DNA of 64,000 nucleotides from a virus. The translations under genes were made by a program, and so were the position numbers. Position 1 is the stretch's first letter. Every line of letters starts with the position of its first letter. The stretch lies in IMG/VR virus record IMGVR_UViG_3300045988_077625, positions 20,961-84,960 of that record; one strand, 5' to 3'. Below, piece after piece: positions 381 to 50,540 of this stretch. Under the pieces are notes generated by a model. It ran no database searches and was not told where the DNA came from. It was given only the letters and a program-made list of their open reading frames with translations.

Positions 381-908
381 TCAACCACCATTTCTTCCAC
401 ATGGGTGAAACTCAGTACATAAGCCACCTCTATATTCGCATAGCGGCACTAGATAATCCTTGAACTCAGGATTAGTCTTAACCACCTCATCAACAATCTG
501 TTGCATGACTGCTCGTGTTTCAGGTGACGCTTGATTGCATAGGCGCTTATGAGCCATATATACAAGCTGCTGGGCGTTGATTGACATAACATGGCTTACT
601 AGCTCATCTTGTGGTGCTTTGTTGCGGTCATACTTGTCTTGCCTATCATTGCGTTGAGATTGAACGTAATGATTGCACCCTACATGATGACGAACGAAGT
701 GCACACTAATCCAGTAAGGGATAACCATATGAATACCAAACCACAACTCTCTAAGAGGGCTATGCTCGGCCCCGATTAGTTTGCGTTTCCATTCGTCATT
801 TGGTACATTCATTATCTGCTTGCCGATAGTGTTCATAGTACAATACTTGCACCATGCCCAATCTTCATCTGTTGGATGTTTCTTTATTTCTACATAAATA
901 TGGCTCAA
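381..908 (-). CDS. thyX: flavin-dependent thymidylate synthase ThyX-like
   Basis: RHHVGCNHYVQSQR resembles the ThyX RHRxxSxxxxSxR signature. TTG start follows GGAGGAGG. Sits directly upstream of dut. Confidence 0.75.
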   Translation of the reverse strand: MSHIYVEIKKHPTDEDWAWCKYCTMNTIGKQIMNVPNDEWKRKLIGAEHSPLRELWFGIHMVIPYWISVHFVRHHVGCNHYVQSQRNDRQDKYDRNKAPQDELVSHVMSINAQQLVYMAHKRLCNQASPETRAVMQQIVDEVVKTNPEFKDYLVPLCEYRGGLCTEFHPCGRNGG

Positions 909-1937: not shown

Positions 1938-2183
1938 TTATCTAAACAACATGTTCTGCCATTGTTTTGACACAATTTCGATGTACTCTTTAACCGCATC
2001 GTTTACATCCACCATATTATTGTATTTTTCTATAAGATTGTTGTTAGACCATCTATAAACCCATTTGTACTTATTGGACATGAATACAATCGAGTTATTG
2101 TAGATTGTTATGTTTCCATTCAGTTTTTGTTGAACAGAGTCTAAGAATATCTTCAGGTATTTTCTATATTCCATATCGTTCAC
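1938..2183 (-). CDS. hypothetical protein
   Basis: Track ORF in the operon. Confidence 0.5.
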   Translation of the reverse strand: MNDMEYRKYLKIFLDSVQQKLNGNITIYNNSIVFMSNKYKWVYRWSNNNLIEKYNNMVDVNDAVKEYIEIVSKQWQNMLFR

Positions 2184-3217
2184 CCGGCATATAAAGATTT
2201 ATACTTACGAATATGTTTTACCAATTTTTTGATATCTCGCTTTGTCGTTGTATTAGAGAATGAGACTCGAATTACATATGGCGCATATTCTGATGGAATG
2301 TTACAAGCGGCTAGCACTCTGTAGTCTTTGACGTCTGCACACGCGCTATGTCCTACAGACACATAGATTTTTTTAGATGCTAAGTAGGATTGCAAAGAAT
2401 CTGCGCTGATATCAAACAGCAAGATAGAATTGATGGCTTTTGTTTTCTCATGCTGAGAATCTACAACATATGAGGTTAATGAATTTTTATAAAGCTGCTT
2501 TTGCAAAAACCTGGACAAATCATCAAAATGCAATTCGTTTAAGTTGTCTACTGATCTACTCAACGCATTTGTTAATTGCTCAATTCCGTTTAAATCTTTT
2601 GTTCCACCCAAAGAAAATTCATATAGGCATTTGCTTAAAGCGTTGGACAACCAAACAAATCCAATTCCAGGATTAGCCCCAAATTTATGTCCAGATGCGA
2701 ACACCATATCACAACAACTTGAAATATCCTCTGGAATTTTATTGTGTCCAATAGCAGCTGTAAGATCGCAACAACAAAACGCGCCATATTCTTTACAAAT
2801 ATTTCCGATGGCTTCTACATCGTATATGCGCCCTGTAATGTTATTTGTTAACATCTGATAAACAAAGATTTTATCATACCAACTTTTTTCTTCCAATTTA
2901 TCTAACTGAACACATAAATCTGATTCATTGTTAAATGTTGAATGAGACACGTTCACAATGGATTCGTGTTCAAAGCAACTAGCCAAATTTGTGTATCGCA
3001 AGAAGCGCATTCTATAGTTTAGTTGTTCCAACAACGTGGAAACATCATGACAAAATAAAAATTTTCCATCATGCAAATTCAATTTGTTGCGGATCGTATT
3101 TTCAAAATTTTGTAATGCTACTGACTCATTTTTAGCATATTGTTGATTTGCATTCAGCATCCACTTGTTTTTTCTTTTAATTTCAGGACAAGTAGAAGCG
3201 TAATCCAAATACACCAT
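2180..3217 (-). CDS. class V aminotransferase / cysteine desulfurase-like (NifS/IscS/DndA-like), copy 1
   Basis: N-terminus MVYLDYAST. PLP-lysine context ASGHKFG. Cys loop VGHSACAD. Paralogous to 10789..11883. Confidence 0.7.
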   Translation of the reverse strand: MVYLDYASTCPEIKRKNKWMLNANQQYAKNESVALQNFENTIRNKLNLHDGKFLFCHDVSTLLEQLNYRMRFLRYTNLASCFEHESIVNVSHSTFNNESDLCVQLDKLEEKSWYDKIFVYQMLTNNITGRIYDVEAIGNICKEYGAFCCCDLTAAIGHNKIPEDISSCCDMVFASGHKFGANPGIGFVWLSNALSKCLYEFSLGGTKDLNGIEQLTNALSRSVDNLNELHFDDLSRFLQKQLYKNSLTSYVVDSQHEKTKAINSILLFDISADSLQSYLASKKIYVSVGHSACADVKDYRVLAACNIPSEYAPYVIRVSFSNTTTKRDIKKLVKHIRKYKSLYAG

Positions 3218-3235
3218 TTCTTCACCCTCTTTCTT

Positions 3236-3397
3236 TTAGCCAATTACTTTGTAATATTTTTTATCAAACACTCTACACGTCAACCCATAAAATTCTTTGG
3301 GGAACAGCACCTTGTACACAGGAAATCCGTCACTAATTTTTGTAACATATCCAATTACGCCCGAAGTAGATTCAATGTATTTTCCTTTTCTAAACAT
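3236..3397 (-). CDS. small hypothetical protein (53 aa, below track cutoff)
   Basis: My translation is MFRKGKYIESTSGVIGYVTK...KVIG. ATG is preceded by GGAGG and lies just downstream of promoter 3431..3459. Confidence 0.4.
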   Translation of the reverse strand: MFRKGKYIESTSGVIGYVTKISDGFPVYKVLFPKEFYGLTCRVFDKKYYKVIG

Positions 3398-3430
3398 CCT
3401 TGACAACCTCCGTTGATTTATTGTATCTAT

Positions 3431-3459
3431 ATAGTATCATATAAAACAGAGGTTGTCAA
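3431..3459 (-). promoter_or_regulatory. sigma70/sigmaA-type promoter
   Basis: Minus strand reads TTGACA-17 nt-TACTAT. Confidence 0.6.
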
Positions 3460-3474
3460 GGATTATTTTTTTAT

Positions 3475-5745
3475 TTACTCACATTTTGTCCAAGCACAGT
3501 TGGGACACGAAACACAGCCACCAATATGCACTAGCGGTTCGCCGCATTCCGGGCATAACTGCTGTTGCATATTTACCTTGCTAATTGGTTCAACAGGGAT
3601 TTTCTTAACCGGCTTTTCTTCACTGTCTTTACTATCATCATCCAGTTCTGATTGCATCTCATTATACATATCTACCAGAGCATTACCAATAGCCATAGGA
3701 CAACACGACCCCTTACTTGTATCATGGTGAGTTGCCTTTCTAGTGGCATAAGATGGACATACACCAGTTGAATCAAGCTGATCTTTGATGGTCATAATAT
3801 CAACGCCAGCGCGGCATAGTAGGCTGACCATGCGGCTTAGACCTGTCATGAAATTAGCACATCCACCTGTCGAGCCTTTATTGAAATATACCTCTTGTAG
3901 ATTGCCGTCAATTGGGTCAAAGAATGCTAAAACATGAAGTGAGCCGCATCCTGTCTGGATTTTGCGCTTTTTGCCAATCAGGTCGTTACTTGCTTCGATG
4001 ATTGAGCCGCGAGGCAGAATAGTAGATGTATTTTCTAACTTAGTTCCATCATCTTTCTTTGATTCAACATTTAGAATGCCAGCTCTCTTGCATCCGGCAC
4101 GATATACTGTAATACCCTTTAGATGCTTTTCCCAAGCATACATATATAGGTCTTTTACATCATCTACTGTCGCTTCATTTGGTAGATTGACAGTTGAGCT
4201 AATACTTGCATCAATATGTTTCTGCCATACTGATTGCATATCAATACGCCGCTCAATAGGAATAGTTGCAGATGTTACAAAGTATGATGGCAAGCCAAGT
4301 TCATCTTTAATACCATGTGCATCCATATATTCTTTAACGATTGGAGTATATACCTTATACACCTCATCATGCCCATGTAGAGATTTAGTTGTACGCTCAT
4401 AGTAATTAGCGAAAATTGGCTCAATGCCGCCTGATACACCAATCATTGTGCTAATAGAGCCAGTTGGGGCGATAGTTAATAGTTGACTATTACGCATACC
4501 ATACATATAAATCAATGTCCCAGCTTCATTATCATCATCTTTGATGTGTTCAACAAAGAACGGAGATGTGGTTACTTTGTTGAAGTCCCAATTATTATAA
4601 TAATCTTTATCTTTAGCTACTCTAGCACTAGCTACGATGGCATTTCTAGCCATAGAATAACCAATAGCGTCACATAGGGCGATAGAATCAGGCGAGCCGT
4701 ATTCAATGCCTAGCTTGATAAGCATATCAGCTAGCCCCATAATACCAAGCCCAATCTGTCTCCAATCTCTAACCGTCTTGCGCTGTTCAGCAAGTGGATG
4801 CCGCTCAAGTCCTTCATCAAGCACATCATTTAGTGCTTTAACTGCAATATTTACAGTTCTGTTAAAATCATCCCAGTCAAACTTGCCGTTATCGGCAAAT
4901 GCAGATAGGTTGATTGCACCAAGTAGACATGAGCCTCCTGCTGGTAGTGGTTCTTCTGCACAGGGATTTACACCAGCATATTCAAAATCCTTGTCATTGC
5001 TTACCAGATTCCAGTTGGTAATTCTATCCCAATAGAGAATACCTGGCTCGGCATAATCCCAATTATTACGGCATAACAGGTCAAAAATATCTCGCGCTTT
5101 TACTGTTTTCTTTATTTCTTCACCTGTTTCATTGCGCTTATAGTATAGTTCCCAATCTTCATCATTTTTAACTGCTACCATAAAACGGTCTGTAACGCGA
5201 ACTGAGATATTAGCAGATGTTACTTTGTTCAAGTCGGATTTTACTGTAATAAATTTTTCTAGGTCTGGATGGGTGCAATCAATGCTAATCATCAATGCCC
5301 CACGTCTACCATTCTGACCAATCTGCTCTGTTACTTGACTGAATGTATCCATAAAGCTGACTGCGCCTGATGTGGATTTAGCTTGATTATTAACTTTTGC
5401 GCCACATGGGGCAAGTTTGCTAATGTCAATTCCGCAGCCTCCTCCATATGAGTACGTCCTAGCCAGCTTTTTAGCAGTATCATAAATTGACTCAATATTA
5501 TCTTCAGGTGGTGAAATCACATAACAATTGCTATATGTTACCTTTTCATCATCAATGCCGCGATTGCTCAAGATGCGCCCGCCAAATAAGAATTTCTTAT
5601 CAGCAATAAGCTCTGCTACATCTGCATCGCCACCACTTACACGCTTAAGCCAATCTTCAAAAGATTCCCCATTGCGCTGATATTTCTTTTTCCAGATGTC
5701 AATACCAAGCTGATTTTCTTTACCTAGCCATTCTTCAACAAACAA
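3475..5745 (-). CDS. nrdJ: ribonucleotide reductase, probably B12-dependent class II
   Basis: NPCAEEPLPAGGSCLLGAINL active-site loop. No small subunit nearby. C-terminal CPECG..CVSCPNC zinc ribbon. TTG start. Confidence 0.8.
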   Translation of the reverse strand: MFVEEWLGKENQLGIDIWKKKYQRNGESFEDWLKRVSGGDADVAELIADKKFLFGGRILSNRGIDDEKVTYSNCYVISPPEDNIESIYDTAKKLARTYSYGGGCGIDISKLAPCGAKVNNQAKSTSGAVSFMDTFSQVTEQIGQNGRRGALMISIDCTHPDLEKFITVKSDLNKVTSANISVRVTDRFMVAVKNDEDWELYYKRNETGEEIKKTVKARDIFDLLCRNNWDYAEPGILYWDRITNWNLVSNDKDFEYAGVNPCAEEPLPAGGSCLLGAINLSAFADNGKFDWDDFNRTVNIAVKALNDVLDEGLERHPLAEQRKTVRDWRQIGLGIMGLADMLIKLGIEYGSPDSIALCDAIGYSMARNAIVASARVAKDKDYYNNWDFNKVTTSPFFVEHIKDDDNEAGTLIYMYGMRNSQLLTIAPTGSISTMIGVSGGIEPIFANYYERTTKSLHGHDEVYKVYTPIVKEYMDAHGIKDELGLPSYFVTSATIPIERRIDMQSVWQKHIDASISSTVNLPNEATVDDVKDLYMYAWEKHLKGITVYRAGCKRAGILNVESKKDDGTKLENTSTILPRGSIIEASNDLIGKKRKIQTGCGSLHVLAFFDPIDGNLQEVYFNKGSTGGCANFMTGLSRMVSLLCRAGVDIMTIKDQLDSTGVCPSYATRKATHHDTSKGSCCPMAIGNALVDMYNEMQSELDDDSKDSEEKPVKKIPVEPISKVNMQQQLCPECGEPLVHIGGCVSCPNCAWTKCE

Positions 5746-5761
5746 TAATCATCTTCCTCCT

Positions 5762-6136
5762 TTATTCAAAGTCATTCATATTAAAGCAATATGCCGTATC
5801 ATCAATTAGCATATCACAATAAATCTTGCGGCAATCCTTATATAGCTCAATTCGCGCCGGGTCATTTTCATTGAAATAATCCCAACGGATATTATGCTTT
5901 TTCAACCATTCTTTAGCTACTTCCGCAGATTCTCCTTCACGACAAGTAGTGATGATAATGACAATATCCATCTCTTGTACAGAGCGGATAAATTCTGCAA
6001 TCGGTGTTTCTAGTCCACACAGCGGATATGAACTATAGCATAGCGTATGGTCAAAATCCACTGCTAATACAAATTTAGTAGGCGGAGATTGTGCATAATA
6101 AGCGTTAATAATCTTCTTAAATTCGGTTCGATTCAT
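5762..6136 (-). CDS. HAD-superfamily phosphatase (putative deoxyribonucleotidase)
   Basis: DFDHTL motif I near the N-terminus. Small size and nucleotide-metabolism context. Confidence 0.55.
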   Translation of the reverse strand: MNRTEFKKIINAYYAQSPPTKFVLAVDFDHTLCYSSYPLCGLETPIAEFIRSVQEMDIVIIITTCREGESAEVAKEWLKKHNIRWDYFNENDPARIELYKDCRKIYCDMLIDDTAYCFNMNDFE

Positions 6137-6170
6137 TTTTAATCATATTACCTCCTTGTCATATATATTA

Positions 6171-8345
6171 TCACGATTCAGTTGATTTGTCAAGTAGCAT
6201 TTCACATAATTCAGTATTTCTTTCCTTTTCCTCTTGTACTCTCAATCCCTCTTGAATAGCCGCCTCATCTCCAATCAATATTAGCCGCTCTTGAGCTCGT
6301 GATACCGCCGTGTAGCACAAATTGCGACTTAACATTCTTACATGGCTTCTATCAATCACTACAATCACAGCCTTTGCTTGGCTACCTTGGCAGCTATGAA
6401 TAGAAATTGCATATGCTAATAGTGTATTCTTGATATGAGACTTATCAACTATACAATTACCGCAATCATATCGCACAATCATATATGGCTCTTTTTCATC
6501 TGGTACAATTTCCATTACTGTGCCAATATCGCCATTTGCTACAAAAGCCGTATCATCATCAACAAGCGGCATAGCATATTCATTCTTTTTGTTAATGACC
6601 TTATCGCCAACTTTGAAATAGATAGGTACATTATTAACAATATGCCCAACCGTGCTTAATTCATTTGGATTGAATTTGGCTTGAATCGCCCCATTGATAG
6701 CTAATGAGCCAATTTCGCCCTTATTAAATGGGGATAGAATCAGCACATCATCCTTACTATATCCATCTGCTAAGAGCCGCGCATATTCTTGTTCAATTTG
6801 ATTGATTACTAATGTATCAGTTTCAATGAACTTATAATCTGTGAAAGTATCTGTCAGATGGTCATTTACTCCATTTCGTACATCAGTAGCTATGGTGATA
6901 ATGCCAGATGTGTTATATCTGAATACTTTAGTCAAGTTGCATACAGGCACTATGCCACTATCAAGCATATCCTCAACAATATTACCACAAGCAATAGATG
7001 CAAGCTGAGATGGGTCAGCTATGAAAATGATTTTGGTATTATCTGCTACCTTATCAAATAGCATTGATAGCAAATGGACGCTAACCATACCCATTTCATC
7101 AATTAGCACATAATCGCCCAGATTGCCCTCACGAATCAAGAACATATGAATAGTGCTTGCTTCGCGCCCTGTTGCTTCTCTTAGGCGTTTGCTAGCTATC
7201 CCTGTCGGGGATAAGAGGGTATAACTATAATCGTTAGCTTCTAACATTTCAATGATTGCCTTGGTCGTAGCCGATTTCCCCGATCCGGCGCTTCCCGTCA
7301 GCATCATAACGTCCTGCTTACAAGCCATCTCAAGAATCTGCGCCTGTTCATCAGTCAGTTCTAAGCCGTCTACGTTTGTAAACTTCTGCCAATCCATAGG
7401 ATAATAATGTGGGTTGGCTATTTTTTTCTTGATGACATCAGCAATATGTTGTTCTGCGCTATATGTGGCTTGTAGAGCTGTATTTTGACTAGAGGTGTCA
7501 TAGTGTACTTGCGCCGATTTTGTCACAACATCGAGGAGATGATGGACACATTGAGGGGCTTTACGCTTGACCATATCAAATAGCTGTTTGGCTTGCATTC
7601 TTGTATTACCGTCCAACTCATTATGCTTTAGAGCATAAATAGTAGCCGCCTCACATCGTTCATAGCTATCAATCCATTGACACGTCTTTTTGGTTATCGC
7701 CTTATCAGCTCTATCGAACGACCATTCAAGCAAGTTAATCATAACAGCATATGGATTAGCATTTATATCCTTGCTAAATTCATATACATTCTTATATGTT
7801 GCGGCAATTTTGTTTATATCCTCATCATGCTCAATGCACCAAGAATATGTTTCGCCCATAAATTTAACACGCTTGTTGATTGTCTTGATTTTGTCAATAT
7901 ATCTTGGCAATAGCACATTACCTACGCCACGAATTTTTTTGTAGTCCAGCTTGTCGGATTCGCCATTCAGCACCATACTGACAAAATGAGGATATGCGGC
8001 ATGACATGATTCGGCTTGCCCATTGGTCATTAGGCTGCGTAGCGTCTGTAATTCGGCTTTTTCTGTTAGATTGAATTTGCCATCTTTAGCTACAAATCCA
8101 GCGAATCCAATAAATTTATAGCTATATTTATACTTGTCGTCCTCACATGGCTCGATGATACAATCAATAGACTGCCCCATTTTCAAGTCGGCAATCCCAG
8201 TTCCTTTTAGGCTGATTGTGCCATATTGAGGATGCCGTTCTATTGAGTCATCCTTAGTGCGACATGATATAATTGAGAAATTGGATTCAGGATTATTGAA
8301 TATCATGCGCATTGGGATTAATTTTACTGTTTGCATGGAATACAC
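6171..8345 (-). CDS. RecD/RecD2-like SF1 DNA helicase
   Basis: Walker A LTGSAGSGKS, Walker B IDEMGMV, C-terminal SIHSCQGSQAKAVIVV. Confidence 0.8.
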   Translation of the reverse strand: MYSMQTVKLIPMRMIFNNPESNFSIISCRTKDDSIERHPQYGTISLKGTGIADLKMGQSIDCIIEPCEDDKYKYSYKFIGFAGFVAKDGKFNLTEKAELQTLRSLMTNGQAESCHAAYPHFVSMVLNGESDKLDYKKIRGVGNVLLPRYIDKIKTINKRVKFMGETYSWCIEHDEDINKIAATYKNVYEFSKDINANPYAVMINLLEWSFDRADKAITKKTCQWIDSYERCEAATIYALKHNELDGNTRMQAKQLFDMVKRKAPQCVHHLLDVVTKSAQVHYDTSSQNTALQATYSAEQHIADVIKKKIANPHYYPMDWQKFTNVDGLELTDEQAQILEMACKQDVMMLTGSAGSGKSATTKAIIEMLEANDYSYTLLSPTGIASKRLREATGREASTIHMFLIREGNLGDYVLIDEMGMVSVHLLSMLFDKVADNTKIIFIADPSQLASIACGNIVEDMLDSGIVPVCNLTKVFRYNTSGIITIATDVRNGVNDHLTDTFTDYKFIETDTLVINQIEQEYARLLADGYSKDDVLILSPFNKGEIGSLAINGAIQAKFNPNELSTVGHIVNNVPIYFKVGDKVINKKNEYAMPLVDDDTAFVANGDIGTVMEIVPDEKEPYMIVRYDCGNCIVDKSHIKNTLLAYAISIHSCQGSQAKAVIVVIDRSHVRMLSRNLCYTAVSRAQERLILIGDEAAIQEGLRVQEEKERNTELCEMLLDKSTES

Positions 8346-9049
8346 CTATACAATTTTTCTGTTTTATCGGTACGACTTGATTTATCCAGTGTGCACTTCA
8401 ACTTGCCTTCCCAGATACATTCAAAGCCGTCCTCTGGCATCCAATATTCACTAATCAGAACGATATTAGTCTTAGCCATTTTTTTACACCAAGCATAGAA
8501 TTTATCATAGTCAAAATCGCTTGTTGCATATTTTGTTGTATCGCGGTATGGAGGGTCACAATAAATGACCATATGATCCACATCCAATTTCCAGAAATCG
8601 CCACATACAAAAAATATTCCTTTTAACTTGGGGGCTTGTTTCTTGATATTTCTGATAGCCTCGTTAGTAATATCTCTTGGCGTTACGCCATCTGCTTTGA
8701 AGCCCCTTGGATAACCACCGAACCATTTTGCGCCGAACGTACAGAACCCTACAAGCCCTACATACCAATCTGGATAATTGGATGGATTGGTTCTTACAGC
8801 ATTATATTCTTCCTCTGTGATGGTATCAGGCAAATCATCTGTTGTCTCTGATACATGATTTAGTAATGCAATCAGATATTTATGAACATCGTTTCCAATC
8901 TTACATGGGCATTTGATTTTATCAATCATATTAGCACCGCCAACAAACGGCTCTAAATAGCCACGACAATTAGGCATATTATCAATATATGATTGGATAA
9001 TAGGTGCAATTTGCTTACTCAAGCGGTTCTTGCTCCCAACGTATTTCAT
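8324..9049 (-). CDS. dam: Dam-like N6-adenine DNA methyltransferase
   Basis: MKYVGSKNRL start, EPFVGGANM (motif I), CDPPY (motif IV). Confidence 0.85.
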   Translation of the reverse strand: MKYVGSKNRLSKQIAPIIQSYIDNMPNCRGYLEPFVGGANMIDKIKCPCKIGNDVHKYLIALLNHVSETTDDLPDTITEEEYNAVRTNPSNYPDWYVGLVGFCTFGAKWFGGYPRGFKADGVTPRDITNEAIRNIKKQAPKLKGIFFVCGDFWKLDVDHMVIYCDPPYRDTTKYATSDFDYDKFYAWCKKMAKTNIVLISEYWMPEDGFECIWEGKLKCTLDKSSRTDKTEKLYRCIPCKQ

Positions 9050-9309
9050 TTGTCATCCTCCTCAACCAGCAGTTGTTCCCATCTGTCAATAATAATCTCC
9101 ATCAGCTTAGTTGCTCCAAACGCTGGCTCCCAGTCTTCATTGTACATTACTTCAAACCCTGTGCAATCAACAAATGTAATCCAACGATATTTTGTAGCTG
9201 TCACCTTAAATTCATTATTGCCTGTTACGCTTACATTTGCTTTTAGCAAGCTATTACAGATATGGCATACAGCATCAAGCCATGCTTCATAGGTTAATAC
9301 GTCTTGCAT
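9046..9309 (-). CDS. hypothetical protein
   Basis: Track ORF with a 4-nt overlap to dam. Confidence 0.5.
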   Translation of the reverse strand: MQDVLTYEAWLDAVCHICNSLLKANVSVTGNNEFKVTATKYRWITFVDCTGFEVMYNEDWEPAFGATKLMEIIIDRWEQLLVEEDDK

Positions 9310-9313
9310 TTGA

Positions 9314-9502
9314 TTACATCTCCTCTTGCCCCAAATTTATAAATTCGCAAACACTCATAATTATATCTTCATATTTATCAAATTCATTAGATTTTTTAAC
9401 AAAATCTCTTGCTTCATACTCCATGAAAAATTTAGGAGTAAAAATCAATTTGTATCTATCTGTTCTCGTGTTTCTAACTTTAACAAACCAGTTATGTTTC
9501 AT
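9314..9502 (-). CDS. hypothetical protein
   Basis: Track ORF. AGGAGG upstream. Downstream of promoter 9536..9564. Confidence 0.5.
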   Translation of the reverse strand: MKHNWFVKVRNTRTDRYKLIFTPKFFMEYEARDFVKKSNEFDKYEDIIMSVCEFINLGQEEM

Positions 9503-9535
9503 AATTAAAACAACCTCCTGTTCTTTGATAAATCA

Positions 9536-9564
9536 AGTATATCATAGTAACAAGAGGTTGTCAA
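9536..9564 (-). promoter_or_regulatory. sigma70-type promoter
   Basis: Minus strand reads TTGACA-17-TATACT. Confidence 0.65.
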
Positions 9565-9576
9565 GCAATATTTTAA

Positions 9577-9831
9577 TTATTTTTTAATCATTTTCTTTAA
9601 TTCTGCAAATAGCTCTCTACCACAAATAGGACAAGTAGAATTTATGTCAACTACATATTTTTCATCTACCATTAGACCGCAATTTGGGCATTTAATAGGT
9701 GCATATTTTAGGGGACGCTCAGTCCGTTTGCGACGATTTCTTTCTGCTCTGCTCAATTTCTTCTTTCTCCTTATATTTTGCTCTATATTCGTCCCGTCTG
9801 GCTTCATCACCATCATTCCACCATTTAACAT
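9577..9831 (-). CDS. possible small zinc-ribbon protein (start uncertain)
   Basis: CPNCG...CPICG pairs. Overlaps the 3' tail of the PP-loop gene in another frame. Confidence 0.35.
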   Translation of the reverse strand: MLNGGMMVMKPDGTNIEQNIRRKKKLSRAERNRRKRTERPLKYAPIKCPNCGLMVDEKYVVDINSTCPICGRELFAELKKMIKK

Positions 9832-10792
9832 TGATATAATCTAACACTTTAGCCATACCAAGCCCCTTAGCAGGGATCCACTTACCAGAATCATCATATT
9901 TACCTCCACGCATACAATAATCATAAAGTTGTGGATGGGTATTAGCTAATGTTTGGAAACGATTTGGTTCTTTTTCAAGGTGACACCCAAATCCACAGAA
10001 CACACAACCTGTTCTTTTGTAATTTGTGAAGTATAGCAAACCGTTTGCTTCTTTTAGCTCTCCATATACAGATGCATATGGAAGATTATGTTTCTTGATA
10101 TAATGAAGAATATCTTGCTCCGTCCAAAATGCGAGCGGCGTTGAAATTGGTTCTTTCAAATTAAACGCATTACATCCTTGTTGTAGCCAATTTTATTCTC
10201 GTCTTTCAGATTCTACAGTCATTACAGCCGTCATCGGATGTAGTCCCGTTTTGTGATAATAATGCTTCAATGGTTCTTTCTTCATTTTATTGCAACAATT
10301 ATCACCTATTGGAACGTCGCAATTACTTAAATATCTCCATTTAAGAGGTAGCATTTTTGTTGTTGCTTTCTTTCCTGTACTTGTAATTCCAGTAAGTCTT
10401 AAATTTCTTGTTTTTATGTTTCTTTCAGGGGGATTTTGTAAGTCCCATATCATTCTTGAGCATTGTTTAGAAATAACTGGATAACCGAATTTCGTTACAA
10501 CTTCACCAAATGTTAGTTTTGGCTTGACGATAGCAACGTTGTCAAACGATTTCACAAATGTTCTAATTTCAGGAAATTCAAGCCCAGTATCAGAATAAAC
10601 AGCAATCACATCAGGATATACATTCCGCACTAAATCAAGCAAGACCGTACTGTCTTTGCCTCTACTAAAAGAAACTGCGACCTTTCCATCCCAATGTTCA
10701 TACCATTCAATAATACGAGCCGTACTAATCTGAATCTTTTCTTCAAGAGATTTGGATTGTAGCTCTTTCAAATCTTCCTTTGTATGATTCAT
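9719..10792 (-). pseudogene. PAPS-reductase/DndC-like PP-loop ATPase interrupted by one in-frame TAA (10193-10195)
   Basis: SFSRGKDST PP-loop. The two track ORFs (10193..10792 and 9719..10159) are in the same frame: ..ESERRE-TAA-NWLQQGCNAFNLKEPISTPLAFWTEQDILHYI. C-terminal part has CVFCGFGCHLE. Confidence 0.7.
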
Positions 10793-11883
10793 TTCACAAA
10801 TTTCTCCTTATATTCAACGACCGCGTTCACAAATTCATCAATGCCCTCACATGTTGTATTTTCTCCAAAAGACACTCTAACAACACGACTTGCTTCATCA
10901 TTAGCTAAGCCACAAGCATTGAGCACTCTGAAATCATGTAGACTTGAACAGGTAGAACCGCCAATACCAATATAGATTTGCTTAGATGCTAGATATTGCT
11001 GTAAGCTGTCAGCGTTAATATCATCAAACATAATAGCGTTGATAGCAGACACGCTACGTGCTGGTTCATTTGCATTCGACTTATCTGGTTTCAACGCATT
11101 ATTGACAACAGCACCGTGAATATCATTATCAGTGAATTTATCAAGCATATATCGGTATAGTTCATATGCTCTTGCCTCATGCTCCTCTGCGTTCTTACAA
11201 GCATCTTCAGTAGCATCAACAATAGCCATCGCACCAACAAGATTAGGCGTACCATGCAGCTTGAAATCACCAAGACAATCATTGAGTTTATCAGATAACC
11301 ACATAGCACCAATGCCGCCCTCAGTACCAAGCTTGTGTCCACTCCAAATAGCACAGTCGCACCATTGGTCAATATTGGCTGGAATTGGAGCTTTGCCAAT
11401 CATAGCGGTCATATCGCAAATATAGAATGAATGGAATCCATGACAGATTGTGCCGATTTGCTCAATATGGAAAATTTCACCTGTGATATTATTGACCCCT
11501 TGCCAGATGACACATCCTCTATATCCTCTATATCCTCTATTCTTAGTTAGAGCATCCTTAAGTTGAATTATATTGGCTACTCTTGTTACTAAGAATCGGT
11601 CGAACGAATCATGTTCATATGTCGAGCCAATAACATACTCTGTGAATCTGCGCTTACCATTGACTTCCCAATTCATCAAATTCTCAACCATCTGACTACT
11701 TGTGCCACCAAATACAACCTTGCCGCTCTTAGCACCAATAGCCGCCTTTACCCTATTTGCACAATCATCAAGCAATTTCTGTTCCTTATAAGCATAATTG
11801 GCATTAGAGTTTAGAAACGAGCCGTATTTACTACATGGATATTTAGTGAACGGATTAGTTGCAGCATAATCTAAATAAATCAA
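10789..11883 (-). CDS. class V aminotransferase / cysteine desulfurase-like, copy 2
   Basis: MIYLDYAATNP, WSGHKLG, GGSTCSS Cys loop. 4-nt overlap with the PP-loop gene. Confidence 0.7.
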   Translation of the reverse strand: MIYLDYAATNPFTKYPCSKYGSFLNSNANYAYKEQKLLDDCANRVKAAIGAKSGKVVFGGTSSQMVENLMNWEVNGKRRFTEYVIGSTYEHDSFDRFLVTRVANIIQLKDALTKNRGYRGYRGCVIWQGVNNITGEIFHIEQIGTICHGFHSFYICDMTAMIGKAPIPANIDQWCDCAIWSGHKLGTEGGIGAMWLSDKLNDCLGDFKLHGTPNLVGAMAIVDATEDACKNAEEHEARAYELYRYMLDKFTDNDIHGAVVNNALKPDKSNANEPARSVSAINAIMFDDINADSLQQYLASKQIYIGIGGSTCSSLHDFRVLNACGLANDEASRVVRVSFGENTTCEGIDEFVNAVVEYKEKFVK

Positions 11884-13493
11884 TTAAAATATTCACTCCA
11901 ATCAATTTCATTTTCATTTGGTTTATCAACAATCTCATATCGTTCAATGATTGCTTGTGGCTTAATCTGCCCATTATATTCGTTCAACCCAAGCGATACT
12001 ACTACCTCTATGGATTTGCCCTGTGCTGATTCAAATTGGTTTGCTTCTTCATTACTAACAAAGAATTTAATGAATTCAATGCCATCCTGAATTAGCTTAA
12101 CAGTAGTTGAGCGATTACGATATACATAGATTTGAGGAGAAGGCAGGGTTAGATGGAATAACGGACTTGGCACACCTTGACCCCATAGGATATTATTTTC
12201 TACACACACATTTGCAAGATTGCGTGTAATATTATTAGGCGCGATCTGAGCCGCCACCTCAATATCTGGCTCTACGTCCAAATCAAGTCCATCTAAGAAT
12301 CGCGCAAATCGCTTGAGATTGGACTTTTTTACTGTGATACCAGCTGCCGCATCATGTCCTTGACATTTAGCTAATCCTGATTTATTGATAATTTCAAGCA
12401 AATCAATAGGACTACGCATCGAGCCAGACCATGTTGTACTGTTTAGTTCTCTCAGCAGGAATGTGGGCTTATTATATTTCCCACAAAATTTATTGGCTAC
12501 AAGCCCTAAATAGGATTTATTCTCAGGTTCACCAAAGCCGATAATAACCTTATGAGACGTATCAAGCCCATCTGATAGCTTATCTACAACCTTCTTGACT
12601 TGATAATCCTGTTTGGACTTTACGGCTTTCATAGCCTTTACGGCGGCTTCTGGCTCAATCTTACCAATCAGCGCATCAAAGAATAACCGCTTAGTAGACT
12701 GGTCATCACTACGAGCAAGCGCATTGGCAAGAGGCGCAATACCAAATGCCACACCCTCTGGATTAACGCCACGATTGCAACAATGCTCTAAGCAGTATTT
12801 GATGAATGGATTAGTTGGATTAGTTAATCCGTCATATACATACTTACGGTTCTCAAGTGAACGTAAGCTGCAAATATCAGAGATTAGGCTAACAGCTACT
12901 AAATCCTTGAAAGATTGAGTCGAGCCAAGCGCACAAGCAAATTTTTCTACAACACCTGTACCACTAATGTCTTTATTGATATTCGGCGCATTGTCGGCTC
13001 GATACGGGTTGACTACAACGGCGTGTTGATTCTTTCGCTCAATGATATGGTGGTCAAGAACAAGACAAGTGCATTTATGCTGTTCCAGCTCTAAACAAGC
13101 GTCATTTTCATTAGAGCTTGAATCAGGCAAGATAAGAAAATCAATATGCGCATCAATAATATCTTGCATCAGGTCTTGTATACCATGCTGCTTTCCAGAA
13201 TGGAATAGTACTACTGGTTCTTTCTTTCCAAATTCTTTACATAGCAAATATGCGATTGCCGCTGATAAGTTGCCATCTCCGTCAGAATCGGCAACGATGC
13301 CAATTTGAATATCGTCATTAGCATACTTGAACATATCAACAGCCACATCCATATTCTTGTACATATCAGGCGATTGATATTCAATCTTATCTGGATTTAG
13401 ATATGAGTCAATATCATCTATACCACAAGCGGATAAATATTCCCTTAAAAATGTGGCTTCATTAAGGGAATTAAGTAGTGGATGAATTTTAAT
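11880..13493 (-). CDS. RecJ-like DHH-family ssDNA exonuclease; start probably ATT at 13493
   Basis: DSDGDGNLSAAI and LDHH motifs. The frame stays open 43 codons upstream of the first ATG and encodes the RecJ-like N-terminus IKIHPLLNSLNEATFLREYLSACGIDDIDSYLNP. Only ATT/ATA codons are available after GGAGG (13504-13508). Confidence 0.7.
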   Translation of the reverse strand: MKIHPLLNSLNEATFLREYLSACGIDDIDSYLNPDKIEYQSPDMYKNMDVAVDMFKYANDDIQIGIVADSDGDGNLSAAIAYLLCKEFGKKEPVVLFHSGKQHGIQDLMQDIIDAHIDFLILPDSSSNENDACLELEQHKCTCLVLDHHIIERKNQHAVVVNPYRADNAPNINKDISGTGVVEKFACALGSTQSFKDLVAVSLISDICSLRSLENRKYVYDGLTNPTNPFIKYCLEHCCNRGVNPEGVAFGIAPLANALARSDDQSTKRLFFDALIGKIEPEAAVKAMKAVKSKQDYQVKKVVDKLSDGLDTSHKVIIGFGEPENKSYLGLVANKFCGKYNKPTFLLRELNSTTWSGSMRSPIDLLEIINKSGLAKCQGHDAAAGITVKKSNLKRFARFLDGLDLDVEPDIEVAAQIAPNNITRNLANVCVENNILWGQGVPSPLFHLTLPSPQIYVYRNRSTTVKLIQDGIEFIKFFVSNEEANQFESAQGKSIEVVVSLGLNEYNGQIKPQAIIERYEIVDKPNENEIDWSEYFN

Positions 13494-13525
13494 ATAAAAT
13501 CAACCTCCTTATTATTGATATAGTG

Positions 13526-13554
13526 ATTATATCATAAAGAGGTTGATTTGTCAA
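13526..13554 (-). promoter_or_regulatory. sigma70-type promoter (extended -10)
   Basis: Minus strand reads TTGACA-17-TATAAT with TGa. Confidence 0.7.
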
Positions 13555-13565
13555 GTATTAAATTA

Positions 13566-13838
13566 TCAAATTTCTTCAACTAGCACATATTCATTATCCC
13601 AAGTACTAATATAATACAGACCACCATGGTCAAGCCCAAGAAAATCAGTTTCGTTTTCTGTAAGCATCCTGACGTCCTCTGCGTCTCGATTGAGAAATTC
13701 TACCATAGAATCAATATCATCAATTCGAGCATTCTTGAACGATTCAACATCCTTATATTCATCTCTGAGATGAGGATCGTCCTTAAACAACATAAAAGCC
13801 TCCTCTACTTCCATGACATTGAGCGTGATTTTCTTCAT
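13566..13838 (-). CDS. hypothetical protein
   Basis: Track ORF 13566..13910. ATG (MKKITL..) after GGAGG lies downstream of promoter 13882..13910. Confidence 0.5.
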   Translation of the reverse strand: MKKITLNVMEVEEAFMLFKDDPHLRDEYKDVESFKNARIDDIDSMVEFLNRDAEDVRMLTENETDFLGLDHGGLYYISTWDNEYVLVEEI

Positions 13839-13881
13839 ATTATAATCCTCCAAATATATATTAGCCGGTTGGCTTAAATAT

Positions 13882-13910
13882 AGAATAGCACAAAAACATT
13901 GATTTGTCAA
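13882..13910 (-). promoter_or_regulatory. sigma70-type promoter
   Basis: Minus strand reads TTGACA-17-TATTCT with TGc. Confidence 0.55.
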
Positions 13911-13920
13911 GTATTATTTT

Positions 13921-14112
13921 TTACCTAAAAATTGTGCCATCCCAAGGCTTATATTCATAGCCGCAACGAGGACAATAATTAGCCTCAACTAGCTCATAGT
14001 GATAACCACATCTAGCACAAACACTATACCATGAGCCATTTGTATTATATCTGTGTTTCCATTTTAGCCTTGTTTCATATAGTGGCTTATATTTACCATA
14101 TTTTCTCTGCAT
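13921..14112 (-). CDS. small zinc-ribbon protein
   Basis: CARCGY...CPRCGY. Confidence 0.5.
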   Translation of the reverse strand: MQRKYGKYKPLYETRLKWKHRYNTNGSWYSVCARCGYHYELVEANYCPRCGYEYKPWDGTIFR

Positions 14113-14238: not shown

Positions 14239-14715
14239 TTATCTCTCTTTCATAAATGCCATCCAATGTGTTTTCTGCAATTTACCAGATTTATGTCCGT
14301 ACATTGGCTCGTATCCAATAACTCGAATTATTTTTGATACAGGAATGTCCGTTTCGTTCCATTTGAAAATTAGCGTTCCATTTGGCTTTAAGACCCTCAT
14401 ACATTCAGAGAATCCCTCGTGTAGCGTCTTTTCCCAATCCTCTTTAAGTACACCATATTTCTTTGCCATCCATGAATTTTCTCCAAGTGTAATCATGTGT
14501 GGAGGGTCAAATACAACGTGCCAAAAAGTATTATCATCAAATGGTAAATTAGTAAAATCAGTAATAATGTCTGGTTTGATAATTAGTTTGCGCCCATCAC
14601 ATAGATTAGCATTTAACTCTCTACAATCACAAAATTCAACATCTGGATTATTTTTATCAAACCAGAACATCTTACTTCCGCAACATGGGTCTAATACCCT
14701 TTTTTCTGTTCTCAT
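14239..14715 (-). CDS. small SAM-dependent (DNA N6A/N4C-type) methyltransferase
   Basis: LDPCCGS (motif I-like) followed by FDPPH (motif IV-like). Confidence 0.6.
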   Translation of the reverse strand: MRTEKRVLDPCCGSKMFWFDKNNPDVEFCDCRELNANLCDGRKLIIKPDIITDFTNLPFDDNTFWHVVFDPPHMITLGENSWMAKKYGVLKEDWEKTLHEGFSECMRVLKPNGTLIFKWNETDIPVSKIIRVIGYEPMYGHKSGKLQKTHWMAFMKER

Positions 14716-15502: not shown

Positions 15503-15613
15503 GATTTTATTATCCTTTCCTACCAAAAGATTTTTATATAGAGTAAAGCGCAGAGAGTAGGCCCTACGCTTCTAAAAGGAATAAGTTGTACACCTTACCC
15601 TACCTCTATCCTA

Positions 15614-18705: not shown

Positions 18706-19331
18706 GAAGAAATTATCTCATATTCTAACATCCACTTATCAATTTCTTCTTGGCTCATAGCCACATCTGTTCGCTTACAATCAACCACACTAAGACCGCT
18801 AGGATGCGTTATAACCCGATTTTTCTCTATGCTATATCCTGCATCATATTCAAGATGCAATCGGCATATACAGCCTTCACAGCCGTCAGGACGTTTGATA
18901 TTAAACACCCTAGGCGAATCGCCGCATATATTCAAGAATCTGCTTGAATCAATCCATTGTCCATCCATTTCTATATTCATGTTATCAGGCGCATTATCTT
19001 CAACTATGCGGCAATATTGTACATTATAATACAATGATTTTTTCCATTCATTGATATTGCCTGATACCAATAGCCTAGTAGGCATATCAGATTTTTTCAT
19101 TGTATAATAATGTTTATTTTTGAGGTATATATAGCTGTCTATTCGTGGGTGGATATATTGCGCCATATTAAGCCATGATTTGATTTGCGACTCATTCCAT
19201 TTGCGGCTTAATGTTTGGCTCATGGTGAGACATTGATTGTTGGCGATGACGCTGAATTTGATTTTCATATGAGTCTGATATATGTCAATTCGCAGCTCTT
19301 GCAGTTGAGCTACACATAGAAATCTATTCAT
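18702..19331 (-). CDS. hypothetical protein
   Basis: Track ORF with a 4-nt overlap to the radical SAM gene. Confidence 0.5.
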   Translation of the reverse strand: MNRFLCVAQLQELRIDIYQTHMKIKFSVIANNQCLTMSQTLSRKWNESQIKSWLNMAQYIHPRIDSYIYLKNKHYYTMKKSDMPTRLLVSGNINEWKKSLYYNVQYCRIVEDNAPDNMNIEMDGQWIDSSRFLNICGDSPRVFNIKRPDGCEGCICRLHLEYDAGYSIEKNRVITHPSGLSVVDCKRTDVAMSQEEIDKWMLEYEIISS

Positions 19332-20575
19332 TTTTTAGACCATATACCAAAAGTCGCCATATCTTTTGGGATTAAATGAAAATAATCACTGTCTCCATTT
19401 TTTGAGACGAACTCATCATAATATTTCCACGAAGCACCTCTTGCTGTTTCGCCATATTCTGCAAGATACCCTGTTATATTCTTTTTATACTTTTTATAGC
19501 CATCAGCCTTCATTCCTCTACATTTACAAAATTCTTCAAATGTAAATGTTTTGAAAAAAGATGGTTGATTGCACCATGCCGCAATAGCATCATATAGCCC
19601 TCTGTATGGAGATTTTTTATAATTTTCATGTCTCATGACATATGGAAAAGCAGAATATTTAGATAGAATGAAAATGCGTTCAAATAGGTCAAATATATCA
19701 TTGAGCCAAAAATCATCATCATACCGATTTTCTCTATCAAAGCCACAAAAGCAATAAAATTTCATTTGTTTTTTCCAATTAGGGCAAGTTGAATATATTA
19801 AATTTAGTTTAGATTTAATTAAGTCTTTATCCTCAATATTATCAAAAGCGAAGATAAGATCACTATCATATTTCCACGTTTGAATTTCTTCTATTTTTTC
19901 TTTGGTGAGCAATCTTTCATCGAGCCCTTGTTTGAATTGAAACCGTCTACCAGTTGATTTTACAGAATTTATAATATTACGCCAGTCAGGACAAGCAAAG
20001 AAATTATCGTCAAGAAAACATAATTTAGGACGTGATATGTCTATAAATTCATCTAATGCAGAATGCGCACAGCATTTATTGTATATCTTATTAACACAAA
20101 ACTGACATTGACGGAAACAGCCTCTCGTCAAGAACCCAATAGAGTAATCGGTGTAATAAACAAATTCTTTTTGCTTTACACCATTAGCAATACAATTTGC
20201 AACCCATTCATCGTACAAATGATAATCCGGGATACAATGCTCTATATTATTAGGAAGTTTTGGTGCTTTCTCGTAGAAAAATCCAGTTCCGCCATATTCT
20301 ATTTTTGGGTTTTTTAAGAATGGATTGTTGGCATAATATTCTGCACAATTTGACTCAGTTTTTTCTATTGATTTGTCCTCCATAGGAATATCTGTCTTGA
20401 CAAAAACTTTAGAAATAAACACTTTGTCAAATCGTTCAATATCTTCATATGATAAACACAACCTAACATTGTCTCTTTGCGATTTATACCATGACGATAT
20501 TTTCATGCAAGCAAGATTCGGGAATCTATGTTTAGTTTGCCCGATAATTTCAGCGTCAATAATACCAACGTTCAA
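19328..20575 (-). CDS. radical SAM enzyme (possible B12-binding-like N-terminal domain)
   Basis: CFRQCQFC fits CxxxCxxC. TTG start overlaps the upstream stop (ATTTGAAC). Confidence 0.65.
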   Translation of the reverse strand: MNVGIIDAEIIGQTKHRFPNLACMKISSWYKSQRDNVRLCLSYEDIERFDKVFISKVFVKTDIPMEDKSIEKTESNCAEYYANNPFLKNPKIEYGGTGFFYEKAPKLPNNIEHCIPDYHLYDEWVANCIANGVKQKEFVYYTDYSIGFLTRGCFRQCQFCVNKIYNKCCAHSALDEFIDISRPKLCFLDDNFFACPDWRNIINSVKSTGRRFQFKQGLDERLLTKEKIEEIQTWKYDSDLIFAFDNIEDKDLIKSKLNLIYSTCPNWKKQMKFYCFCGFDRENRYDDDFWLNDIFDLFERIFILSKYSAFPYVMRHENYKKSPYRGLYDAIAAWCNQPSFFKTFTFEEFCKCRGMKADGYKKYKKNITGYLAEYGETARGASWKYYDEFVSKNGDSDYFHLIPKDMATFGIWSKK

Positions 20576-22172: not shown

Positions 22173-22741
22173 TAAATTTCCTCCTTATATTTCCATCTAA
22201 ATCCATTAGATGTTTTTCTTTTATTTTTACAACATTCACAAATATGATTTGATTTATATCCAAGTGTTTCTATGGCTTCTTTAATGCTTTCCCACTCTCT
22301 TATAATTTCTCCGTCCAAATTCATTTGAATAACTGGTATTTTTATAGCGGGATTATTTTCTTTGAATTTTATGCTCAATTCATCATAGAACCATCTTTTA
22401 CGTTCAGCTCTTTTCTTATGTCCTTGATTATAAGATAAATTATATCCTTGTGTACACCATTCTAGGTTGTTTACATAATTGTTTAATTTGTTTTCGTCTT
22501 TATGGTTAACAATCGGAAGGTTTTCTGGATTTGATAAAAATGCTTCTGCTACAAGACGATGAACCAATAATCTTTTACCAACTTTGTTCTTAAAAAGCTG
22601 AACAGTTGCATATCTATTGTTACATATATTCCACTTTAATTTTTTCTTATATCGAAACAAACTCCGTACATTACCAAAATTACTTACTTCATACAATCCT
22701 TCATATCCAACCACATCTTTCCAAATTTCTTTTTCTTCCAT
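22172..22741 (-). CDS. HNH homing endonuclease (NUMOD4-like N-terminus)
   Basis: WKDVVGYEGLYEVSNFGNVRS; VHRLVAEAF; NHKDENKLNNYVNNLEW. Confidence 0.75.
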   Translation of the reverse strand: MEEKEIWKDVVGYEGLYEVSNFGNVRSLFRYKKKLKWNICNNRYATVQLFKNKVGKRLLVHRLVAEAFLSNPENLPIVNHKDENKLNNYVNNLEWCTQGYNLSYNQGHKKRAERKRWFYDELSIKFKENNPAIKIPVIQMNLDGEIIREWESIKEAIETLGYKSNHICECCKNKRKTSNGFRWKYKEEI

Positions 22742-49715: not shown

Positions 49716-50540
49716 ATGTTTTGCCCATATTGCGGCAAGGAAAAGCAAGATAGCCAATTCTATAAAAGCCCAATCAAAACGGGCGAATATATTAAGCCAT
49801 GTAAGTCATGCGTAACTGAGCTATATAAGCAAGCTCTTGAATCTACTAAAGACCAAGGCGCAGCATTATGGTCAACTTGTATGCAGACTGGTATTCCTAT
49901 GAGACGCGCTGAATATACGGCTTGCCTTGAAACGCTAGAAAAAGCGGCTAAAGGCAAAAAGCCTAGTTTATTTATGTTGTATCATACATATTTATCCACA
50001 TCTCCTGATAAGCTAACGGGCGTATGGGATAGCGATATGGAGTTGTCTAATTTCAAGGATTTGGGCGATGTTGCTAAGGGTGAAACTGATGAGGTGGCGC
50101 TTAAAGCGAGATGGCGCAAACAATGGGGCGGCGACTATGAGGATGAAGATTGTCAGTGGCTAGATGATATGTTTGATAGCTATACGGCAGATATATTTGA
50201 AATGGACACCGCTATGGAAATGCGTTATCGTGACTTGTGTAAATTAGAGCTTGAGCAGTATAAAAATGGTGTTAATAAGGACACACAGTCGCAGATCAAA
50301 ACGCTTATGTCATTACTTAAACTTGATGATTTTAAGAGCAATCAGAAGTCGGATGCTGAACGGGCGTTTGAGAAGCGTATAGCTTGGGTGGAATATACCA
50401 AGCCGTCTGAATGTGAAGATTTAACAAGATTCATAGATATGGTTGGATATGAAAAGGACAAGGGCGAAAAGATGCGTAGTTTGCGCAATGCTGTTGCTGG
50501 CACTAGAGATTACCCAGCAATCCCGAAGGAGGAAGCATAA
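49716..50540 (+). CDS. putative terminase small subunit (by position)
   Basis: Immediately precedes the large terminase gene with an ATGA-type overlap. N-terminal CPYCG zinc knuckle. Confidence 0.35.
   Translation: MFCPYCGKEKQDSQFYKSPIKTGEYIKPCKSCVTELYKQALESTKDQGAALWSTCMQTGIPMRRAEYTACLETLEKAAKGKKPSLFMLYHTYLSTSPDKLTGVWDSDMELSNFKDLGDVAKGETDEVALKARWRKQWGGDYEDEDCQWLDDMFDSYTADIFEMDTAMEMRYRDLCKLELEQYKNGVNKDTQSQIKTLMSLLKLDDFKSNQKSDAERAFEKRIAWVEYTKPSECEDLTRFIDMVGYEKDKGEKMRSLRNAVAGTRDYPAIPKEEA

Follow-up and report, generated by a model that had tools for sequence, protein, structure and literature searches.

Why should a bacteriophage encode two cysteine desulfurases in its replication region, one of them from a gene that overlaps the gene of a PP-loop enzyme of the PAPS-reductase family? 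This question is raised by a stretch of 64,000 nucleotides (the window; positions 20,961 to 84,960 of the IMG/VR record IMGVR_UViG_3300045988_077625), which comes from an uncultured human-gut phage genome of ~85 kb with ~38% GC. An earlier inspection without database searches (the sequence-only reading) had recognized in these genes the sulfur-mobilizing core of the Dnd and Ssp phosphorothioation systems and proposed a minimal phage system for thiolation of DNA or tRNA or, failing that, a mere supply of Fe-S clusters. Its observations were partly confirmed in this study and its interpretation was partly supported. We consider it about as probable as not (roughly 0.5) that the window contains two intact desulfurases of a phage family and the recently inactivated remnant of a facultative PP-loop partner, with the pair acting as sulfur donor and ATP-dependent sulfur transferase. 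This reading is carried by the anatomy of the genes, their conserved residues, two inactivating mutations, the patterns of synteny and loss in related phages and the exclusion of the PP-loop protein from the known families. What we infer from them is that the desulfurases are active, and likewise the substrate, the chemistry and the presence of an Fe-S cluster.

The sequence-only reading described a single PP-loop gene with the motifs SFSRGKDST and CVFCGFGC. These motifs are in the same frame but on separate open reading frames (ORFs), split by a single in-frame TAA codon (10193-10195) which interrupts a frame of 357 codons. The N-terminal fragment of 199 amino acids (aa) (10193..10792, minus strand) ends at this premature codon, matches the Pfam PAPS_reduct profile PF01507 with 42.2 bits at profile positions 2-50 and carries the loop SFSRGKDS (10649-10672), in which Arg44 is encoded by AGA (10661-10663). 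The C-terminal remainder (9719..10192, minus strand), whose mechanically called ORF (9719..10159) begins with TTG at 10159, matches positions 135-172 of the same profile with 28.9 bits and contains the motifs GCNAF, CVFCGFGC (9983-10006) and DYCMRGG (9902-9922). An intact homologue, P0121 (locus L009, on a 74.5-kb contig), has 358 aa and is 97% identical. Relative to this allele, in which the loop reads SFSGGKDS, the window carries the changes G44R (GGA to AGA) and Q200stop (CAA to TAA). Gly-Gly is present in the PP-loop of 117 of the 120 homologues compared, mostly as SFSGGKDS (67) or SNSGGVDS (48), and arginine in none of them. The two alleles differ in 60 synonymous and only 11 non-synonymous codons (dN/dS 0.04), which indicates that the gene was under selection until recently and that its inactivation is a recent event. 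The PP-loop enzyme is knocked out in the window lineage by G44R and Q200stop, and its step is not expected to occur there; given the nonsense codon and the glycine substitution, neither is a minimal thiolation system at work in this very phage. The PP-loop gene also has a mosaic structure: when window 9719-10792 is compared with L003 11071-12168, the ends are near-identical, whereas the middle part occurs in two diverged allelic types, which suggests recombination between cassettes.

Trivial explanations of the TAA codon were considered. Four contigs of ~85 kb from public gut-metagenome assemblies carry the broken allele, and in two of them (L007 and L008), which come from different samples, the PP-loop gene is base-for-base identical to that of the window. 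A sequencing error was therefore rejected, since the identical allele in independent assemblies shows that a real circulating lineage is involved. Stop-codon recoding was rejected as well: this is the sole in-frame split of a recognizable gene on the coding strand, TAA terminates 21 of the 45 large ORFs (TGA 22, TAG 2), and tRNA-Leu(CAA) and tRNA-Ile(UAU) are the only tRNA genes of the window, with no suppressor tRNA among them. TAG is a rare stop codon in the window. A functional enzyme made of two pieces is unlikely, because the core domain itself is cut, the closest available start is a TTG whose Shine-Dalgarno sequence is poorly spaced, and the PP-loop glycine is lost.

Both desulfurase genes are intact. 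AT5_2 (364 aa; 10789..11883, minus strand; Pfam PF00266, Aminotran_5, 67.3 bits) encodes a short NifS/IscS-like cysteine desulfurase, and its paralogue AT5_1 (345 aa; 2180..3217, minus strand; PF00266, 86.9 bits) lies downstream of the gene for a class II ribonucleotide reductase (RNR). The coordinates and motifs given for them by the sequence-only reading were exact: the SGHK motif is located at 2684-2695 in AT5_1 and at 11332-11343 in AT5_2 and aligns in both to K206 of IscS, and the cysteine loops are GHSACA (2336-2353) and GGSTCS (10945-10962), respectively. AT5_1 and AT5_2 share 35% identity along their entire length (7e-67, BLASTP), whereas either is only ~25% identical to cellular enzymes. 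In an alignment of 40 sequences including E. coli IscS, residues H91, D157, K184, C312 and R336 (AT5_2 numbering) are invariant and correspond to H104, D180, K206, C328 and R354 of IscS; by this alignment, K184 is equivalent to the lysine which binds pyridoxal phosphate (PLP) and C312 to the catalytic cysteine. All NCBIfam matches at E ≤1e-5 were to models of the NifS/IscS/SufS/DndA type, except for one unnamed model (NF005047), and all PDB matches were to cysteine desulfurases or their close kin (selenocysteine lyase, DndA, SspA), the best match of AT5_2 being E. coli IscS (3.4e-12). The phage proteins thus share with IscS and NifS the class V aminotransferase fold, the SGHK lysine, the cysteine of the SxC loop and the His, Asp and Arg residues, and cysteine desulfurase activity is predicted for both. 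They differ from IscS and NifS in length (335-365 versus 380-405 aa), in having no C-terminal tail and in occurring almost only on viral contigs. Their dN/dS values (0.09 for AT5_1, 0.14-0.16 for AT5_2) are similar to those of RecJ and RecD2 and show purifying selection on both genes.

A search of 1.84 billion representative proteins showed that these desulfurases form a distinct family of 75 clusters at E ≤1e-30, mostly of 335-365 aa; ordinary desulfurases of 380-410 aa enter the same search only from about E 1e-13. Peptide patterns built from a 10-sequence alignment found the family on 18 IMG/VR viral contigs of 35-108 kb, whereas the same patterns matched a single contig of a metagenome-assembled genome among one genome each of 185,579 species, and no host was indicated. 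The short desulfurase family is therefore phage-restricted, or essentially viral. Our literature searches brought up no phage-encoded cysteine desulfurase, and the family appears to be undescribed so far. Orthologues of AT5_2 at 72-88% identity are abundant. AT5_1 is a narrow, lineage-specific paralogue, since only 5 clusters exceed 50% identity to it. It belongs to a cassette (window 1938-3406; L119 611-2717) with a 56-aa ORF upstream (3236..3406, minus strand) and an 81-aa ORF (1938..2183, minus strand) which overlaps its stop codon (GTGA), and both small ORFs are conserved beside the AT5_1 orthologues of L119 and L009. In the window the cassette comes after the gene for class II RNR, in L119 after those for class III NrdD and the Fe-S activase NrdG, which hints at a link of this paralogue to RNR activation.

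The pairing of a desulfurase with the PP-loop gene, as proposed by the sequence-only reading, is real, translationally coupled and conserved in relatives, but only for AT5_2; AT5_1 is not paired with a PP-loop gene. AT5_2 overlaps the PP-loop ORF by the predicted 4 nt (ATGA, 10789-10792) and the RecJ gene upstream by another 4 nt (TTGA, 11880-11883). This RecJ-like exonuclease gene (11880..13364, minus strand; DHH, DHHA1 and RecJ_OB domains) is the first of the RecJ-desulfurase-PP-loop string, and the three genes are translationally coupled in relatives. The PP-loop gene lies directly beside the desulfurase gene in 8 of the 18 IMG/VR loci, down to 34% desulfurase identity. A start/stop overlap of the two genes is present in the loci checked (the window, L003-L006, L009 and L010), and in L131 and L136 the gene order is reversed with the ORFs still contiguous. 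The adjacency exceeds chance, because it recurs in many related viral contigs, at identities down to 34% and in both gene orders. L041 was not counted as a coupled pair: its canonical NifS gene and its PP-loop gene are 4 kb apart, with unrelated Bro/ANT and RdRP-like genes between them.

Throughout the clade, the desulfurase gene belongs to the replication module: in 16-19 of 21 loci, it is located near the genes of DnaB, DnaG, RecJ or DnaE. RecJ is encoded directly upstream of it in the closest relatives (L003, L009, L016-L021 and L027) and a few genes away in the same module elsewhere. The order PP-loop gene, zinc-ribbon gene, small ORFs, Dam and RecD2 is conserved, and the PP-loop gene itself has been lost repeatedly. 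An ORF of the HNH family occupies its place in L013/L017 and in L030, and it is absent from L021 and L027 although present in the otherwise collinear L019. According to a scan with an exact degenerate pattern, the desulfurase gene is present and the clade-type PP-loop gene absent in six near-complete contigs of 86-92 kb. Homing endonucleases target the desulfurase gene as well as those of RecJ, RNR and DnaE; in L032, an HNH ORF is situated between the two halves of the desulfurase gene. In L028 and L030, the desulfurase gene is preceded by a 277-aa ORF (e.g. L030 4747-5577) which, by its motifs, looks like a papain-like (C1) cysteine peptidase.

The PP-loop protein was assigned to the phage "PAPS reductase" family PHROG 424 (158.1 bits, residues 8-303). 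Phages of Clostridium, Ruminococcus, Enterobacter and Vibrio have homologues, which are frequently encoded in the packaging region, and those of the first three groups are annotated as PAPS reductases. The family loop is the canonical SGGxDS of ATP pyrophosphatases (SGG[KV]DS in the 117 sequences mentioned above), in contrast to SSSFGIQA in CysH; the window itself has SRGKDS. Residues C166/C167, C207, C263, C266 and C293 are invariant. The resulting CC...CxxC signature is of the kind by which APS reductases and DndC coordinate a [4Fe-4S] cluster, and the phage protein may carry such a cluster too. An AlphaFold model of the protein (pLDDT 88.7) was closest in Foldseek to PAPS/APS reductases (target-normalized TM-score ~0.6, 15-19% identity), followed at a distance by TtuA (E 3.5e-4, TM 0.31-0.37) and LarE; no DndC, SspD or BrxP chain was among the best 50 matches, although Foldseek is unable to separate DndC-like from CysH-like folds. 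As for other members of PHROG 424, which share the fold and the invariant cysteines, DNA methyltransferase and packaging genes are frequent neighbours: around 80 diverse viral loci of the family we counted N6/N4 methyltransferases (29) and C5 methyltransferases (13), followed by terminase, SSB and HNH genes. What sets the gut-phage clade apart is the position in the replication module and the coupling to a phage-encoded desulfurase, which is found ≤6 kb away in only 3 of the 80 loci.

In the intact relatives, RecJ, desulfurase and PP-loop enzyme would be translated as one coupled string. Their mode of action is most probably that of DndA-DndC or of NifZ-ThiI and YrvO-MnmA of Bacillus. The loop cysteine of the desulfurase would receive the sulfur of the substrate cysteine in persulfide form, and this sulfur would be loaded onto the Fe-S or cysteine site of the PP-loop enzyme. 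The latter would then activate a nucleic acid by adenylation and replace oxygen in it by sulfur. This nucleic acid is more likely to be DNA than RNA, because the PP-loop family habitually adjoins DNA methyltransferase genes. In the window lineage, the PP-loop step would be dead and the desulfurases would act as partner-independent sulfur donors. A partner-independent role follows from the combination of a dead partner with desulfurases under purifying selection, and the retention of the desulfurase in at least six near-complete genomes without the clade-type PP-loop gene means that its main role cannot depend on that partner. Candidate roles would be the supply of Fe-S clusters to the radical SAM (S-adenosylmethionine) protein in the window or to NrdG in relatives, or the feeding of host acceptors. 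Fe-S cluster supply is the most economical of these.

NifZ-ThiI and YrvO-MnmA are dedicated desulfurase-thiolase pairs of Bacillota. The phage pair resembles them in that a class I desulfurase gene lies immediately beside that of the PP-loop ATP pyrophosphatase which it serves, so that no general scaffold is needed. It differs from them in that those enzymes are tRNA thiolases of other clades, whereas the phage protein has the PAPS-reductase fold. With DndA-DndC and SspA-SspD it shares the adjacency of a NifS-like PLP desulfurase and a PAPS-reductase-fold PP-loop protein, the SGGxDS loop, cysteines of the Fe-S type and a DNA-related context. Unlike these systems, it is encoded by a phage within the replication module, has no DndB/D/E or SspB/C partner, and in the window one of its two components is a pseudogene.

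A working DNA phosphorothioation of the Dnd/Ssp kind in this very phage is very improbable. A desulfurase with a PAPS-reductase-fold PP-loop protein does constitute the sulfur-mobilizing core of those systems (PMC12914056, PMC10853773), and the PADLOC models of DndA and SspA gave 83-91 bits with the desulfurases. But the scores with the DndA equivalog TIGR03235 (44.0 and 44.7 bits) were far below its cut-off of 480, and the PP-loop gene has a premature stop codon and a mutated ATP loop. Nor did the view of its product as DndC/SspD-like hold: P0121 scored 16 bits with DndC (residues 14-57), 33 with SspD (40-86) and 45.5 with BrxP (25-80), the window protein similarly, and the likeness is confined to ~45-60 residues of the N-terminal PP-loop region. 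The sequence-only reading had noticed no DndB/D/E or SspB/C partner, and none was detected in the Pfam and PHROG scans of the neighbours. Specifically, no P-loop NTPase of the DndD/SspC/BrxC type, DndE or SspB was found by Pfam and PHROG in the window ORFs flanking the pair, or by Pfam within ~10 kb on each side in the related loci (PADLOC was not run on the neighbours). None of the scanned desulfurase neighbours, such as RecJ, RNR, Dam and RecD2, matched a Dnd or Ssp family. Phosphorothioates have been found only where a P-loop NTPase, which is indispensable, accompanies the PAPS-reductase protein (PMC12914056, PMC10853773). As its PP-loop protein matches the family models only in part and no such NTPase accompanies it, this is not a Dnd/Ssp system. 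The closest solved structures are PAPS/APS reductases, and the virome literature treats phage PAPS reductase, on the basis of annotation, as a cysH auxiliary metabolic gene (AMG) (PMC13369170). The PP-loop protein shares with CysH the fold and a DTG..FPE motif, and the spacing of CC...CxxC resembles that of APS reductase. If the protein were a viral CysH for assimilatory sulfate reduction, with the desulfurases serving cysteine catabolism, CysH models should have scored better than 43-46 bits (cut-offs 154-165), and the family should not differ from CysH by its SGGxDS loop, its extra insertions, a C-terminal extension of ~60 residues and the missing ECG[LI]H tail, a motif not present in the PP-loop protein sequence. 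The canonical ATP loop, the coupling to a desulfurase and the methyltransferase neighbourhoods within the replication module, away from cys genes, also argue against a cysH AMG, a role to which we give hardly any credence. Family-level matches were likewise missing for other candidates: TtcA gave 20.8 bits (cut-off 272), no ThiI or MnmA model matched, and PF01507 was the only domain found, without DUF3440, the C-terminal domain of the IbrA type. Sub-cut-off or partial matches thus rule out the protein as DndC, SspD, BrxP, CysH or TtcA.

Thiolation of phage or host tRNA (of the s2U, s4U or s2C type), which would tune translation or frameshifting in the way host IscS-dependent thiolation does for phage lambda, is improbable. 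The two tRNA genes of the window and the fact that dedicated pairs of a desulfurase and a PP-loop thiolase are the norm in Bacillota speak for it. So do the host tRNA thiolation genes that are listed among phage host factors in PMC6242692. Against it, the PP-loop protein falls into the PAPS-reductase clade and not with TtcA, TtuA, ThiI or MnmA, the gene sits in a DNA replication module, and its neighbours across phages are those of DNA methyltransferases, terminase and SSB. The possibility with more weight, though still doubtful, is that the desulfurases serve Fe-S and sulfur housekeeping only, building [4Fe-4S] clusters on phage proteins (PP-loop protein, NrdG, radical SAM protein) in an anaerobic host with no sulfur reaching nucleic acids; the PP-loop protein would then be an unrelated DNA-associated enzyme merely needing its cluster. 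Many genomes keep the desulfurase without the PP-loop gene, the AT5_1 cassette adjoins NrdG in L119, NrdD and a Fer4_12 protein are encoded in L019, L021 and L027, and the window has a radical SAM gene. A precedent is the DndC cluster, which is assembled by DndA (You et al. 2007, as quoted in PMC12914056). In contrast, the tight start/stop overlap with a canonical ATP pyrophosphatase is more like the thiolase pairs than like cluster maturation, no scaffold of the IscU/SufU/NifU type was found, and the window lineage, with its class II RNR and without NrdG, still keeps both desulfurases. The supply of Fe-S clusters or sulfur, the fallback of the sequence-only reading, is nevertheless a live option.

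Several findings also weigh against the reading which we prefer, that of a desulfurase family with a facultative, here inactivated, partner in sulfur transfer. The best NCBIfam scores of the desulfurases (79.1 and 71.3 bits) are far from the curated NifS/IscS cut-offs of 304-643, and Gln183 of IscS, which contacts PLP, is replaced by alanine (A160), nearly invariantly in the 40-sequence alignment; together, these features make a different PLP chemistry possible. The 3 of 80 loci with a desulfurase nearby show that the pairing is clade-specific. No IscU, SufU, TusA or rhodanese scaffold or carrier was detected in the scanned parts of the window. No universal phage Fe-S client which would explain the constant retention of the desulfurase was found, the radical SAM gene being lineage-specific and the RNR of the window of class II. 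For most related loci, the flanks compared extended over 8-10 kb on each side. The stronger proposal that, in the intact relatives, the desulfurase and the PHROG-424 enzyme constitute a two-component phage system of DNA thiolation (phosphorothioate or thio-base) without DndD, DndE, SspB and SspC is unlikely at present.

The genes discussed are part of a replication and nucleotide-metabolism module on the minus strand (1-43 kb), in which DnaE, DnaB, DnaG, RecJ, a RecD2-type helicase, class II RNR, a Sak4-like protein and a single-stranded DNA-binding (SSB)-like protein were identified by Pfam and PHROG scans. Beyond ~44 kb, the plus strand carries packaging genes including the large terminase gene (50540..52384), with few other annotated ORFs on that strand. 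The nearest cultured phages are distant relatives only, as judged by the terminase (38% identity with Enterocloster bolteae phages) and DnaE (49% identity with Clostridioides phage pCD1602_4). Megablast of window 2000-14000 against GenBank phages gave zero matches. The desulfurase family was not found in cultured relatives, where tblastn matches reached ≤27% identity and fell in unannotated, probably host-derived records.

Around the pair, the surroundings listed by the sequence-only reading were largely as described: Dam, a second methyltransferase, RNR and replication genes are all present. A Dam-type (D12) N6-adenine DNA methyltransferase gene (8324..9049, minus strand; PF02086, 58.5 bits) lies ~670 nt downstream of the PP-loop gene. 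A small zinc-ribbon gene (9577..9831, minus strand), whose basic product gave weak Pfam zinc-ribbon matches, overlaps the 3' end of the PP-loop gene and is kept in L003, L009 and L013 (87-93% identity by tblastn), including one relative without the PP-loop gene. The second methyltransferase, a small SAM-dependent protein of 158 aa (14239..14715, minus strand; PHROG 954, 260 bits; motifs VLDPCCGS and FDPPH), is barely seen by Pfam, and an HNH gene lies immediately upstream. The radical SAM gene alluded to by the sequence-only reading corresponds to 19328..20575 (minus strand; 415 aa; phrog_9298, 148.7 bits; CxxxCxxC motif CFRQCQFC). It was missed by Pfam and found by a motif scan and PHROGs, and it is specific to this lineage among the loci compared, not being at the same position in L003 and L009. 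An exception is the supposed ThyX: this protein of 175 aa (381..908, minus strand) matches only positions 148-190 of the Thy1 profile, i.e. about the last 43, and may not be a working thymidylate synthase. It has the same length in relatives, and a dCTP deaminase/dUTPase-like gene follows.

Elsewhere in the module, a dCMP deaminase gene lies beside that of a CxxC-rich DUF1599 ("nucleotide modification associated domain 1") protein (40641-41888, minus strand), and the two may represent a separate nucleotide-modification or salvage pair. A tyrosine recombinase is encoded at 29657-30535 (minus strand) in a phage whose markers are almost absent from the 185,579 bacterial species genomes; it may serve genome-dimer resolution or a phage-plasmid lifestyle rather than chromosomal integration. 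Homing elements abound in the clade. The set of the window comprises HNH, I-HmuI-like, T5orf172 and GIY-YIG elements (14768-15526, 22172-22741, 42128-43318 and 43812-44375), and in relatives the genes of RecJ, RNR (by a LAGLIDADG gene), DnaE (by an intein) and the desulfurase are interrupted (L032 6853-8807; L003 17656-20943; L009 1-545).

What is new in these phages is a version of the known pairing of a desulfurase with a PP-loop sulfur-transfer enzyme that is located in a replication module, and which has decayed in this genome. The constant presence of the desulfurase in the replication module of phages of 85-108 kb raises the question why the replisome region needs its own sulfur donor, and the window lineage with its dead partner provides a natural knock-out control for comparison with relatives in which the PP-loop gene is intact. 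Among the viral auxiliary genes of sulfur metabolism, the phage "PAPS reductase/cysH" is one of the most cited, honey-bee and human gut viromes being two examples. This "cysH" gene is coupled, in an abundant human-gut phage clade, to a phage-only desulfurase and keeps an ATP-pyrophosphatase loop that is absent from CysH, which favours transfer of sulfur to a macromolecule over sulfate assimilation. If a two-component thiolation does operate in the intact relatives, it would provide an anti-restriction mark alongside Dam methylation, and "cysH" AMGs of viromes would be DNA-modification enzymes.

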